From: a plasmid
Sequence record: NC_011409.1
DNA: 59,393 nt
Strand: one strand, 5' to 3'
Position 1 is the stretch's first letter; each line of letters begins with the position of its first letter. Made by a program: the position numbers. Below, piece by piece: positions 3,001-9,000 of the stretch.

Positions 3001-6000
3001 ATTTAATGGTCTAGGTCATGCGCCAATTGATAAATTGCTTGCGATTCGTAATAACGCCTTAGCCATTTGGCAAAATTATCAATTTGAATTAGATGTGACC
3101 TTTGATGAAATTTGGGGACACAGCCTAGCTCGTTGTAATGATGACCAACCGTTTCATATCAAAGTCTTCCAAGACCATCTCATTGATGAAATGTCATCTA
3201 TGTTAGGTGATCGTGTAAGTTATGAAGTCCTTTACCTTGAAATTGATCTCGATGAGCAAAAATTCAAGAAAATGGCGCAAAAACAACACGAAATACAGCA
3301 AAGCGTACAAGAAAGTATCCAAGATGTTCAAGCGTTTAATACACCTCAGCCACAAGAAACCGTATTAGATACATTATCTCAACCTAGTGTAGTCACTACT
3401 CCAAAAATGACTACTACTGAAAAAAAATCAATACCTGCGCCAGTATTAAAGCAAGCAAGTGTTGAAATTTCTCCTTCATTTGAGAATGAAACAGAGGATG
3501 AAGAGTTTGATGAAACTAATGCTAATTCAGAAGGGCTTTCTTTTGATTTTGCTAAAAATTTAACTCAACAATTTGGCATTACTCCTGGCATGAGCATTCA
3601 GGAGCAACGCCAACAACGTGCAGAAGAAAATGGATTAGGCTTTGCTTGCGTAGGCCGTCAACCAGTTGATGATATTTGGAAAATTTATCCTGGTCGTCAG
3701 CATAAAGTAGAAGCTTATTCACTAGCACTCGACATTGCGGAAAGTGTTGGATTAACTGACTACATTGAACATGTAGTAAAAGAGCCTGTTGATTACACTT
3801 ACCGCGTAAAACCATTAGATAAAGATGTGAGCGGTGTAGCACAGATGTGTTATGACTTCTTAAATTTATTACAAACAGATGTGCACCCACAGACATCTTT
3901 CACCTTATTACCGGAATATTTACTCAATACTCAAGAAATTGATGATACCACGCTAGTTAAATTATTCCGTTTAATTCGCCTCGTTCGCTATATTCGTTCA
4001 GAAGGAGATGCATAATGAGCATGTTCAGCAATTTAAACCAAGTGGTATTGAATGAGATTTTGGTTAATTTACAAGAAGGCAATATCAATGTTTGCCGGAA
4101 CTATGGTTTCTCAAAACAAGAATTGCAAGAAATTGAAAAACTCAGCACAGAGGAAGTTTATGAACTGGCTAACACCAAAGCTCCCTTTGCCAAAGTTGAA
4201 ATTAATCACGATGCATTTTGGCGATTAGTGGCTCGAGTACGCATGTCGTCACAAGAACGTCGCCTTATTGATCGCGCATTAATGTTAGGTGCATCCATCC
4301 AAATGCTCAATTCCTACTTCGGCTTAACCACTTCAAAAGTATCTGCTCGTCGTAGCCTACTTGGAAAACAAGAACCAATGGGACGTAAGCCAGCTGCAAC
4401 CGAAGAGGAAGAAAAATTAATTTGGGACTTATGGCAAGAGCATAAAGGTGATGTTCAAACAATTGAATCAACAGAAGGACTAGAGCTGTTAATTTTAATT
4501 GCGGAAGAAACCGGTATTAATTTAACTGAAATTTGGAAACTTGTTAGCCGCTGGAATGCAGCTTAAAAAACATAACGCCCAACCTAGTGCGTTACGTTAA
4601 GTTGGGCGTTATTCATATCGTTAGTAAGGAACTTGGGAAAGTTCATTGGCTATTGTAAAGATGTTTAAGCACATTGCAACAATAAAAATGAAATATTCTC
4701 AGAGAGAATTAAATTATGGAAACAAAATTACAAGAGCATGGGTTGCTCTTTTTTGGCAACCAGCATGAAACAGTTCCAACCCGTTTGCTATTTGATCCTT
4801 ATTTAACATCAAGAGCAAAATTGGCATGGCAACTTATAAAATACAAAGCAAGAGAATTTCAATCAGGCATGTTCCCATCATACGAAGTGCTTGCAAAATT
4901 ACTTTCAGATAAACCTTATGATGAAGCAGAACTCTCGCGTAAGCTAGTTAGCCAAACGTTGTTATTACTTAGATTAACTCGTTGGCTAACACTTTGTGAA
5001 ACTGTACGTAATGAGCAAGGTCAAGTATTGGGTAATTTTTACATCCTTCATGATGAACCTATGCCAATCATTGATACGATTCAATTAAACCATGATTACA
5101 TCGCACTCCTTGAAAAATCCATTCAGCATCGAGATAACTTTGTGCGAGGTGTAGCAAACCATATTGTAGAAAACCTGCTCTCGGATAATACTCAGTGGCA
5201 TTATATTTCTCACATTGATTGGATGCGAGCTCGCCTTCAAGACTATCAAAAACGTCCAAAAATGGATATTTCAGAGCAAGAAGAATCAACATTTATTCAA
5301 GAAAACTTACTAAGTTCCAATAAGGAACTCAATGAAAAAACAGGGGAACTCAGTAAAAATAACCTTAGTTCCAAAATGGAACTCAGTAAAATCAAGCAGA
5401 GTTCCAAAAGGGAACTCAGTGCCCAAAATGATGATAAGTCATTGATTTCAGGCTTAGTTCCAAAAGGGAACTCAGGTTTTTCACAGTACAGTACAAGTAC
5501 TAGTATTTATATAAATACGTACTGTACTGGTAATGTGGATGAAATTGACTGGCCGACTAATATTCAGTTTTCATCATTGGAAAAAACAGCAATTATGCAA
5601 GCAATGCGTGGACTTGATTTAGGAATCTGTAAAGCGATTTTATTTGAGCTTGAACAGCGTGTGGCAAAAGGTGAAGTGAAAAAACCACAAGGCTATGTAG
5701 TGACATTAATCCAACGTGCACACCGTGGTGAATTTAAACCATATTTGTATGAACAATTTTTGGCTACACAAGCGCAATCATTATCATCAAAAAATCGGTT
5801 ATCACAACATGATGAAACTAGCTTAGTTAATAATGTGAAAGCCGATAGCGCAATAAAACCAATGCGAGTGCAATCTGAAGAAGAGCGAAAAGCGAGAGCT
5901 GATCGCATTCGACAATTTAAGGCTTCAATTTGCAATTGAATAAGCTGTATAAAAAGTGAATAGTATAGAAGGATTCTACAAAGTACAAAAATTAACCACT

Positions 6001-9000
6001 GTAAAGGGGCTTTACAAAGTACAAAAATTAACCACTGTAAAGGGGCTTTACAAAGTACAAATTTTAACCAGTGTGCTAGGGTTGCACGGTGAACAAAAAT
6101 TAACCACTGTAAAGGGGCTTTACAAAGTACAAATTTTAACCAAATGATAAAAGGTGACATAACATGACAACAACATACAACCAACAACTTGGGCCGTTAC
6201 GCAGTGAGATTACATTTACGCTTCATACCCAGTATGCAACTCGTCTTTGGAATGGTCGTGACTTAGTTAAAAATGAAGCAGGTGAAGTCGTTACATCATC
6301 AATTCTCAGTATTCCTAATGCTCTATCTCTATTGAGCCAAATTCAGCAAGCTGCTGAACAAGATGATCCTTATGCTGATGATTATCTACTTCGTTTTGAA
6401 CAAAAAGTCTTAGGATTTCGTAAAGAAATGCAAGATATGACCTGGAGAATGGTTAATCTCTACAGTGAGAAAATCCCTGAAAACTTTCAAATTGAGCGTT
6501 GCGCCAATATTGCTCCGATTCAATACCCTATTTTTGTGAATACTCAGCTGGGTTATCAATTATTGTATCTTTTGGCTGACTTTGATTCGTTAGCTCGTAC
6601 AGTGATGACCGCTTCACATATTGCATTACTTACAAAAGATGATGCGTATGATTGGTTAGAATCCGGTGCTAAATTAATTCGTCGTGCATTTGGTGTGCTT
6701 GAGAATTACCGAAATTCCGGTATTACACGCCAAGATGCGCTTGAAAATAACGCTCGCTATCAAGCTGCTGTAAAACGTATGAAATATACCTTAACGCCTG
6801 ACGTGCTTTCCGGTACAACACGTGCAACATTTGCTCCAACAATTAAAAAATCATCACTTGCTGAATCAGATGATAATGGCTCTGTTGAAGTCCAAATTAC
6901 AGCAAATAAAACTGAATAATGGAGATTGGGATTATGGATAACGTGCTCATTCCTTCTGATATGTATAAACAATTAGGACGCACAACCCCACTTAATGACT
7001 CGCTGAAACAGTTATTCAGTGAGTTAGACTCAGTGCAACAGTATGAATTACTAGCTGAATCCCTTGCTACAGTCCGTGAAGCTTTAATGTTGCAGCAGAA
7101 TGAAATGTTGCAGAACGTTCGTAAAAGTGAACTTAGTGTATTACCTATTCACATGATCCGAGATAAAGCATCATCATCCGGTGGGACGTTTTTACGCTGG
7201 CGCAGTTTTCAAGCCTCTAAGACTGGTGATGCTGTGTTAAATCCGGTATTTAATAATCCTCAGTTATCTTCAGACTTACGACAAAAACTTGTCTCAGCTG
7301 AGAAAGAACGCATTTTGATTAATCTGCAGGTCTCCGTACTAAATTTTATGATGAGACAGGTATCAAGTGCGGTAGATAAAATTAAAGAGATAGAAGATCA
7401 TTTATAACATTCACATTTGTGAACGTTGGATCTTCTAGTTTGTAATCGGCTAATTTATATAGTTTGTGATCGGCTCACTAAAAGGCCTTTTAAAGGTAAG
7501 GGGACAAGCCCCTTACCTTAACGAAAAAAAAGCCTTTGCCTTTCGTGGTTGTGTTAAAAAATCTCTGTGTTTTTTACTGAATTTACCCTTAAGGATTAGA
7601 TGTAAAAAATGCACAATCTTGACAGTTAATTTTGTGATTTAGGAGAAATCAATATGGCTGGAATTAATAAAGTAATTATCGTGGGACATTTAGGTAATGA
7701 TCCTGAAATGCGAAGCATGCCGAATGGTGAGGCAGTTGCAAATATCAGTGTAGCAACTAGCGAAGCTTGGACGGATAAAAACACCGGTGAACGTCGTGAA
7801 GTGACTGAATGGCATCGAATCGTTTTTTATCGCAAATTAGATGAAATTTGCGGTCAATACCTCAAGAAGGGAGCTCAAGTCTATATTGAAGGTCGCTTAC
7901 GTACTCGTAAATGGCAAGATCAAAACGGGCAAGATCGTTATACCACGGAAATCCAAGGTGATGTAATGCAAATGTTAGGTACTCGCCCTCAAAGTGCAGA
8001 TGGTGCAAATAATTCTCAGCCAATGCCACAACAAGATGCATCGGCAAATACTTTTGATGATTCAATACCATTCTGAACTCAATCTAATTAAGGTTAATTG
8101 TGATGAAAAAAATAATTTTTGTTTTATCTGCCGTCGCTGCTTTAAGTGGTTGTGCTGAATTAAACTCATTGAATGATGCGGTTGGTAATGTTGCAGGTCA
8201 GCTCAGCAGTGTTCTTGGTGGGGGGAATAGTTCCTCTAGTTCTTCTGGTGTGGCTTACACTCAAAGTTCTCGTTCTCATCGCTATAACGTAGAGGATTCA
8301 ATTACATCATCTAAAAATATTGATTCTCTTTACGTAAAAATTAAGCGTAATTTAAAATTCAAAACTAGGGATGAAGCATTAAGTGGATTATCCGGGTATG
8401 AGCGTCAACGTTACGAATCGCTTTTAGATGAAGAAGGACATGCTCATGAAGCGACTCCTGGGGTCTATTATCACATGGCAAATAGCTATGTTGGCGGTCG
8501 AAAAATTGACATAACGCTTGCAAAAGAGGATGGCAAGGTTAGAATTTCCTGGATTGCTTCCTCAAACGAGTCTGATTTTGCTCAGTTTGTTAAATCAGAA
8601 GTGATAAAAGCAATAAAATAATACGACAATATAAACATAGTGTAGGTAATCAATACCTCATTCTCCTTTGCCCCAACCTTAGTGGGGCTTTTTTTATTTA
8701 AGTTATTTTTAAATTTCAATACCGATAATAACGATTATTTTGTATGATAGATAACGAAACAAATTTGTTTTTTGAGATCCATCCAAACTTTTCCTTTTCC
8801 TCATATTGTTTAATATCTCAAGCGTTTACCCCTTGGTTACAAGGGGTATTTTTCTCCTGTAATAGCAAAATATAAATTAAGTGGCTCAAAATGAAGTGAA
8901 GATAATGGGCTTGCATACTTTGACAGAATTTTAGCTTTCTCTTTATGGTTTCTAATCAAAATAGGAAACTCCTTTACACCATTTGCAAGCAACCAAAGCG

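Follow-up and report, generated by a model that had tools for sequence, protein, structure and literature searches.

Tandem palindromes in an ICEHin1056/ICEclc-family element as probable bisS-like sites for a ParB-family protein with a hypervariable helix

We describe a tandem array of palindromes in a 59,393-nucleotide stretch of plasmid DNA (record NC_011409.1; this whole stretch is hereafter the window), which belongs to an integrative conjugative element (ICE) of the ICEHin1056/ICEclc/PAPI-1/SPI-7 family with its closest relatives in Haemophilus parainfluenzae and H. influenzae. Most of the 224 bp that separate a STY4528-family gene, which ends at 5939, from an AcaB-like gene, which starts at 6164, are taken up by the array, and it probably constitutes tandem bisS-like (parS-like) binding or loading sites for the element's BisD-like protein, set before an AcaB-like/inrR/ssb operon. 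A preliminary description had linked the repeats to a ParB-like protein, and we find that they most likely belong to the one encoded 2 kb upstream: across related elements its recognition helix changes together with the palindrome cores, and the array lies where ICEclc has its experimentally defined site bisS-1 and the promoter PinR. The co-variation is correlative and suggests that the sequence of the site is set by the DNA-binding helix of BisD.

Anatomy of the palindrome array

The 36-bp tandem repeat noticed earlier upstream of the gene at 6164 is real. Tandem Repeats Finder returned a period of 36, 4.6 copies, 76% matches, 0% indels and a score of 220 at 5977-6142, and the 36-mer AATTAACCACTGTAAAGGGGCTTTACAAAGTACAAA occurs in three exact copies where 100 shuffles give an expectation of zero. 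The inverted heptamers TGTAAAG/CTTTACA, previously taken as unit termini, are confirmed in the array, but its natural parsing is a 17-bp palindrome of the form TG-N5-GGG-N5-CA followed by a 19-bp A/T-rich conserved linker, AAGTACAAAWWTTAACCAC, and not a unit with inverted termini. Counted in this way there are five units, which corrects the earlier figure of three to four. The palindromes keep a register of exactly 36 bp without any indel, including the third unit once thought to be extended, which instead carries a different core, TGTGCTA-GGG-TTGCACG. The reported tacaaa sub-repeat exists as sequence, although it is simply part of the linker. The components are as follows.

5964..6142, no strand assigned: whole array, five 17-bp palindromes and five 19-bp (the last 18-bp) conserved A/T-rich linkers
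5964..5980, no strand assigned: palindrome P0, tatagaa-gga-ttctaca, a degenerate TAGAA-type core with 6/7 pairs
6000..6016, no strand assigned: palindrome P1, TGTAAAG-GGG-CTTTACA, TAAAG core, the type paired with the element's SHTL recognition helix
6036..6052, no strand assigned: palindrome P2, TGTAAAG-GGG-CTTTACA, TAAAG core
6072..6088, no strand assigned: palindrome P3, TGTGCTA-GGG-TTGCACG, GCTA-type core with 5/7 pairs
6108..6124, no strand assigned: palindrome P4, TGTAAAG-GGG-CTTTACA, promoter-proximal, its centre 48 bp before the ATG
6125..6142, + strand: last linker copy, AAGTACAAATTTTAACCA
6128..6133, + strand: TACAAA, the only -10-like hexamer whose placement would yield the roughly 25-nt leader known from the ICEclc promoter PinR (PMC2892462)
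6151..6157, + strand: Shine-Dalgarno-like AAGGTGA, read from the sequence, serving the gene that starts at 6164

The degenerate P0 has a perfect counterpart in relatives, tgtagaagggttctaca. Within the repeat unit the linker, AAGTACAAAWWTTAACCA, is the best-conserved part, and its motif was found nowhere in the rest of the 59-kb window, all other intergenic regions included; nor did we find an array-type palindrome elsewhere in the window, the vicinity of ssb included.

We compared this array with those of related elements in about 190 loci drawn from species-representative genomes, metagenomes and further contigs (loci are numbered with the prefix L). Pasteurellaceae relatives carry arrays at an exact 36-bp period, with a second clade at exactly 40 bp. 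The suspicion that repeat number varies was borne out: arrays in Pasteurellaceae relatives hold 1-16 units (median 4), and 2-5 units occur among contigs encoding an identical BisD-like protein, counts that are approximate for metagenomes and in which short-read assemblies may miscount identical units. The 16-unit arrays come from complete genomes (L182, L185); the contigs L003 and L004 start inside the array, and L190, L191, L193 and L194 carry runs of N within it. Some elements have a single unit (L097, L173-177). Cores differ even within single arrays, both arms of the palindrome changing together in a compensatory manner, and the 328 units collected resolve into 70 distinct 17-mers and 19 distinct perfect arms. 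Of the 70 distinct units, 52 have GGG or GGA at their centre on the + strand; AGT, ACT and CCC are among the other centres. Palindromes extend up to 23 bp (10-11-bp arms) in L013, L018 and L026, against 17 bp (7+3+7) in the window, and, with few exceptions, 36-bp-type loci place the centre of the last palindrome 45-49 bp from the ATG.

The 40-bp clade (L015, L017, L022, L023, L025) has GC-rich palindromes that run through to a 1-nt centre, exemplified by TGTTTCCAGTGGAAACA, which is similar to chromosomal parS; the helix classes of this clade (SNQI, SYSL, SYSI and SHQI) are its own. Pasteurella testudinis (L012) and Gallibacterium (L027, L028) keep the gene order with no tandem array in the gap; in Gallibacterium a pair of long inverted sequences occupies it instead.

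Co-variation of palindrome core and recognition helix

The protein whose helix varies together with the cores is encoded upstream of the array.

2327..4015, + strand: BisD-like ParB-family gene, 562 aa; TIGR03764 (ICE_PFGI_1_parB), E 8e-114
2888..2974, + strand: helix-turn-helix codons, residues 188-216
2936-2974, + strand: recognition helix, residues 204-216, HTLIAKMEKCINF; the hypervariable hot spot of the protein

Alignment of BisD-like proteins places a helix-turn-helix (HTH) at residues 188-216 (LSSRELSTELEKDGYIISHTLIAKMEKCINF), whose second helix differs sharply between otherwise near-identical proteins. In the AlphaFold model, helices are predicted at 188-197 and 204-216 with a predicted local distance difference test score (pLDDT) of about 63-89. 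In a set of 45 BisD proteins that share 92% identity or more with that of the window, variability over 12-residue stretches peaks at residues 204-215 (0.72 bit, the mean being 0.064), and residues 180-219 hold 15 of the 46 variable positions of the BisD-like protein. The same helix alleles recur on backbones that are only 62-85% identical, which implies their exchange by recombination. By comparison, the AcaB-like, BisC-like and DUF3158 proteins each have only three variable positions in 20 H. parainfluenzae-type loci. The arginine of a GGNTR motif is invariant and lines up with the GGNTR of BisD homologues of the ICEclc type, which is the GxxR motif around R95 in ICEclc BisD.

Helix class follows the palindrome core that an array amplifies or contains. 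The pairs are listed below, followed, where available, by the diagonal value of a table of mean copy numbers.

SHTL: core TAAAG; the window, L088, L089, L165-170 and L187; mean copies 1.86 (TAAAG)
ANTT: core GCGG/GCAG; mean copies 2.0 (TGCRG)
QFSM: core GCTA; mean copies 1.83 (TGCTA)
SKTL: core CCAG, the sole core in L098; mean copies 1.22 (YCCAG)
HYTM/HYTN: core TAGAA/CAGAA, on four backbones; mean copies 2.8 (YAGAA, for HYTM)
HHSN/HQTM: core AAGAA, the sole unit in L097 and L173-177
SQVL: core AAAAG, 10-12 of 16 units in L182, L183 and L185; mean copies 6.0 (AAAAG)

A G-test over 45 distinct (helix, array) pairs gave G = 328 against 204 +/- 20 in permutations, none of the 20,000 reaching the observed value, a rough measure only, as the permutations ignore the relatedness of the sequences. 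Six pairings were also stated before the validation loci were read: all six helix classes, tested on other backbones, came with the predicted core, an outcome that, by hand enumeration from the arrays, just one of the 720 label assignments satisfies. Two further predictions held (L187, L188), and there was one near miss, in which HQTL gave AAGAG where AAGAA had been expected.

The STY4528-family protein was considered as the binder of the cores and rejected: across the 20 H. parainfluenzae-type loci its variants sort with the lineage of the backbone and with neither helix class nor core.

Outside the Pasteurellaceae, the same gap holds one to three lineage-specific palindromes (CTATCCCCnGGGGATAG, TATACCCCGGGTATA, TATGCCAGTGGCATA, GATTCCACTGGAATC, TATGCGAGTCGCATA), and there too the helix changes with the palindrome: QQSH is found with CTATCCCC, AQPH with TAT(G/A)CCA, and SQSH with TATGCGA or GATTCCA. 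The ICEclc-type helix, QQSHISRM, is invariant in the loci sampled, in contrast to the hypervariable helix of window-type elements.

Arrays of H. parainfluenzae typically display a panel of five cores (TAGAA, TAAAG, GCGG, GCTA and CCAG) that matches five helix classes in window-type and related backbones; the HYTM class that pairs with TAGAA occurs on other backbones and is absent from the 20 H. parainfluenzae-type loci. Such a panel hints at either cross-loading among sibling elements or frequent recombination.

Correspondence with ICEclc bisS and competing explanations

In ICEclc, BisD is a ParB-like, cytidine triphosphate (CTP)-dependent clamp that loads at two bisS palindromes and activates transfer-competence promoters together with BisC; BisD foci form on bisS, and a clamping role was also proposed by the authors (PMC12409273). 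The promoter PinR lies upstream of ORF95213, its transcripts starting 25 nt ahead of the start codon (PMC2892462); PinR requires BisDC and InrR (PMC9286271), and InrR alone does not activate it (PMC7423338). The window preserves this gene context, with a GGNTR-bearing BisD homologue just upstream and palindromes of about 17-23 bp, as in ICEclc, in the same gap before the ORF95213 homologue. In the ICEclc-like locus L078 the published bisS, CTATCCCCnGGGGATAG, stands at 3701 and 3833 in this gap (ATG at 3971), with a third copy at 5840, after ssb, at the published spacing of 2.0 kb (PMC12409273). Because bisS of L078 occupies the same gap, we regard the window array as positionally homologous to bisS-1. 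The two differ in that ICEclc has two identical single sites, GAGCTATCCCCnGGGGATAGCTC, 2 kb apart, published as a near-perfect palindrome of about 23 bp (an 11-bp inverted repeat), whereas the window has five tandem units of 17-bp palindrome (7+3+7) and linker at a 36-bp period. The units, TGTAAAGGGGCTTTACA and variants, bear no resemblance to GAGCTATCCCCnGGGGATAGCTC, and their cores differ within one array.

From these comparisons we infer physical binding, a CTP-clamp mechanism, an effect on transcription, and roles for the linker and the non-cognate units. Each 17-bp palindrome, TG-N5-(GGG)-N5-CA, would be a dyad site for a BisD dimer, with its variable N5 core read by the hypervariable recognition helix (residues 204-216), and the TAAAG units, three of the five in the window, would be the cognate sites of the SHTLIAK helix. 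If it behaves as in ICEclc, BisD would bind CTP, clamp the DNA at these sites and then travel downstream along with transcription; in concert with the BisC-like protein it would next turn on the transfer-competence genes, and the clamp may further serve to hold or partition the excised element. A larger number of cognate units would allow more loading, and their copy number could set the activation threshold. The non-cognate units (TAGAA, GCTA) match helix classes of sibling elements and may serve cross-loading or be leftovers of recombination. If the leader is about 25 nt long as in ICEclc, one may conjecture that TACAAA is the -10 element and that the last palindrome lies at about -23; a promoter scan for sigma-70 sites inside the array gave only weak 9-of-12 matches, no more than chance, and did not flag TACAAA.

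Several observations weigh against this assignment. The palindromes share no sequence with ICEclc bisS, and the case for binding is a comparative one; no second site lies near ssb in the window; and neither the asymmetric, conserved linker nor the strand-constant GGG centre is explained by a symmetric dimer site. Foldseek returned no significant ParB match against the PDB, and the AlphaFold model is of good quality over residues 161-338 only, being poor at residues 1-161. The N-terminal part of BisD gave only weak matches to ParB/Srx-fold kinases among PDB sequences, and ParB membership accordingly rests on TIGR03764, this weak ParB/Srx-type N-terminal match and homology to ICEclc BisD. The helix and core do not agree everywhere: AAAAG is missing from L184 (SQVL) and GCGG from L109 (ANTT), the array of L094 is of the ANTT type, just 2 of the 16 units of L188 have TAGAA, and L009 and L011 amplify a non-cognate core. 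Co-variation could in part reflect linkage, as the helix and array are about 3 kb apart in related sequences; the mere presence of a core in a large mixed array is weak evidence, and the possible miscounting of units mentioned above belongs here as well.

In three of these loci (L094, L109 and L184) the helix allele does not fit its own array or backbone haplotype; L094 combines an SKTL helix with an ANTT-type backbone and array. Such mismatches look like recent recombination confined to the HTH segment.

The linkers leave room for another protein. An AcaB-family (ribbon-helix-helix (RHH)-like) protein, the DUF3158/InrR homologue or the BisC-like, FlhC-type subunit might bind the 19-bp linkers cooperatively and autoregulate the operon, the array being an operator or activator site. 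We consider this unlikely as an account of the array, although a linker-binding regulator is possible and would be compatible with BisD on the palindromes. AcaB belongs to the RHH superfamily and, as an activator, forms a positive feedback loop with AcaCD (PMC8373056), the requirement of PinR for InrR as well as BisDC (PMC9286271) would fit, the linker is both the best-conserved part of the unit and specific to the array, and the spacing between the last unit and the ATG is fixed. However, the cores vary whereas the AcaB-like, DUF3158 and BisC-like proteins hardly do, which means that these proteins cannot account for the palindromes, and InrR alone is insufficient for PinR in ICEclc (PMC7423338). 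The confinement of the linker motif to the array argues against a general regulon box, a candidate we rejected on that ground.

Repeats of this kind are already known from PFGI-1 (PMC2647930) and ICEHin1056 (PMC2258188), where they have been read as replication origins. In PFGI-1, four 46-bp direct repeats with 21-bp inverted repeats just upstream of PFL_4669 are annotated as the second half of a putative oriV, in the same gap as the window array, and four 23-bp palindromes inside PFL_4668 match those at 5310-5480 of the window; the PFGI-1 repeats differ in period (46 against 36 bp) and sequence, were read as iterons without experiment, and no core diversity within the array or link to a ParB-like helix is described for them (PMC2647930). 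ICEHin1056 is likewise said to carry an iteron-like putative oriV in this module, also annotated without experiment (PMC2258188). The array could be an iteron oriV whose direct repeats are bound by the STY4528-family protein or another initiator that opens the A/T-rich linkers for the DnaB helicase encoded by the island, and its A/T-rich linkers and its neighbours (dnaB, ssb, topB and an NCBIfam 'replication protein') would suit such a role. We nevertheless think this improbable, given the heterogeneous units, the single-unit elements, the failure of cores to track STY4528 variants and a scan that found no DnaA box inside the array. Iterons of a single Rep protein are near-identical, whereas units within one array here differ in core; one unit suffices in L097 and L173-177; and the cores follow the BisD helix. 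The same points speak against the classical iterons envisaged in the preliminary description. Replication of excised ICEclc reportedly depends on the relaxase and oriT. For the window array itself, nothing points to the oriT or nic site that had also been proposed: no relaxase gene lies in 141-11530, and no search for a nic consensus was made.

A pure partition centromere, at which the same ParB-like protein would bind but serve ParA-driven segregation of the excised element and not transcription, would be modelled on sopC of the F plasmid, and we give it little credence. In sopC, tandem repeats each hold an inverted repeat and are bound by a dimer of a ParB-family HTH protein, with multiple sites raising ParB loading. 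The window shows this layout, having tandem units with inverted repeats near parA, which heads the module, and near a parB-like gene, dnaB lying between the two genes. Yet sopC units are near-identical whereas those of the window carry different cores, and the window protein has an extra activator domain, a BisC partner and a site at a promoter. Partition systems escape incompatibility by diversifying helix and site, which the diversification in window-type elements resembles, but arrays of mixed specificity are the opposite of what such escape would select. KorB of RK2 offers another parallel, as a ParB-family CTP clamp that acts at palindromic OB sites at or near promoters and controls transcription with a partner; it differs in that KorB represses and that OB sites are dispersed and identical, with no tandem array or allelic diversity of helix and site. 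The BisD foci on bisS and the proposed clamping role would suit a centromere, but in ICEclc BisD is needed with BisC for promoter activation (PMC12409273), the window keeps a BisC-like partner, and the array directly adjoins the promoter region, its spacing to the start codon being constant. The label 'centromere' used earlier would thus cover only half of the likely function, the 'ParB' here being BisD, a CTP-dependent sliding clamp that activates transfer genes with BisC.

It is very improbable that the palindromes work as RNA hairpins within an extended 5' leader (serving either stability or CsrA-type binding at GGA loops) or as hairpins of single-stranded DNA during transfer (priming or ssi). 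The compensatory changes on both arms, with G.T intermediates (TGTGCGG/CTGCACA alongside CAG/CTG and CGG/CCG), the G-rich + strand centre in 52 of 70 distinct units and the transfer of the element as single-stranded DNA would agree with this, but stem mismatches show no strand bias (+ strand G.T 16 against A.C 16), the predicted RNA fold gains no stability over shuffled sequence (z = +0.76), and the joint variation of core and protein helix points to duplex DNA as the form that is recognized. No Rfam family matched (only a chance-level mir-239, E 0.36), and a terminator scan found no terminator-like site at the array. A CsrA/Rsm-type GGA-loop sponge was rejected on the absence of mismatch strand bias, a fold equal to shuffles and the varied centres, GGA not being general: they are 1 nt in the 40-bp clade and AGT, ACT or CCC elsewhere.

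Taken as bisS-like sites of the BisD-like protein, the repeats belong with BisD/bisS and ParB/parS, and what they add is an apparent natural helix/site specificity code. Tentatively, in ICEHin1056-type elements at least eight recognition-helix alleles of a ParB-family clamp may each pair with their own core and be exchanged by recombination between backbones, with arrays displaying the locks of several keys; siblings sharing a cell might then load one another's clamps and so cross-activate or titrate one another, and cognate copy number might tune transfer competence. If the pairing is true, it would provide a natural specificity table for a ParB-family HTH, relating helix positions 1-4 to a 5-bp core, for use in orthogonal ParB/parS-type engineering, and the 'oriV iteron' annotation in ICEHin1056, PFGI-1 and pKLC102-type islands would be re-read as clamp-loading sites. 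Cognate copy number would become a handle on transfer switching in the antibiotic-resistance ICEs of Haemophilus and the Pasteurellaceae, and mixed arrays would allow one to ask whether related ICEs in one cell communicate or interfere.

Gene neighbourhood and other repeats

The genes around the array, other than the BisD-like gene given above, are as follows.

141-977: parA, heading the module
4015..4566, + strand: BisC-like gene, DUF2857, 183 aa (PMC7423338)
4716..5939, + strand: STY4528-family gene, equivalent of ICEclc orf96323 and PFGI-1 PFL_4668; stop codon 24 bp before P0
6164..6919, + strand: PFL_4669/TIGR03761/Pfam AcaB-family gene, equivalent of ICEclc ORF95213, heading the operon downstream of the array (PMC2892462)
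6919..7407, + strand: DUF3158 gene, positional equivalent of ICEclc inrR, assigned by synteny (PMC2892462, PMC7423338)
7654..8076, + strand: ssb, in the same gene cluster in ICEclc

The dnaB gene between parA and the parB-like gene is of the SPI-7 type, the STY4528-family gene is also the NCBIfam 'replication protein', and topB lies downstream of the array, beyond DUF3158 and ssb. Gene order equals that of ICEclc, bisD-bisC-orf96323-ORF95213-inrR-ssb (PMC7423338, PMC2892462), and in the related loci that hold these genes the order BisD-like, DUF2857, STY4528, AcaB-like, DUF3158 is kept from the window to ICEclc-type loci.

Inside the STY4528-family gene, the stretch 5310-5529 holds four palindromes of the type AGTTCCAAAAGGGAACT (5310-5480, spacing 54/33/56 bp), a DnaA-box-like TTTTTCACA beside them at 5477 and, 3' of the latter, an A/T-rich palindrome with perfect 11-nt arms (5484-5494/5519-5529). 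This layout is the same as that of the 'first half of the putative oriV' of PFGI-1, and the ICEclc equivalent of these palindromes, candidate bisS-3, shows no BisD binding. Variable positions in the STY4528 protein are concentrated where this DNA encodes it. The gap that precedes ssb contains two neighbouring palindromes, TAAAAGGCCTTTTA and AAGGTAAGGGGacaaCCCCTTACCTT (7479-7521), which do not belong to the array type.

Farther along the window, near-identical 24-bp palindromes at 14626-14649 and 26601-26624 and a mirrored pair of 18-bp palindromes at 15094-15111 and 26139-26156, each pair about 12 kb apart, may mark inverted insertion sequence copies or transposon ends that bracket cargo. A perfect 13-bp tandem repeat, TTAACTCTTATGA, runs through 10.3 copies with 100% matches at 54396-54529, and at the end of the window a 139-bp direct repeat is present in 2.0 copies that are 94% identical (59033-59309).

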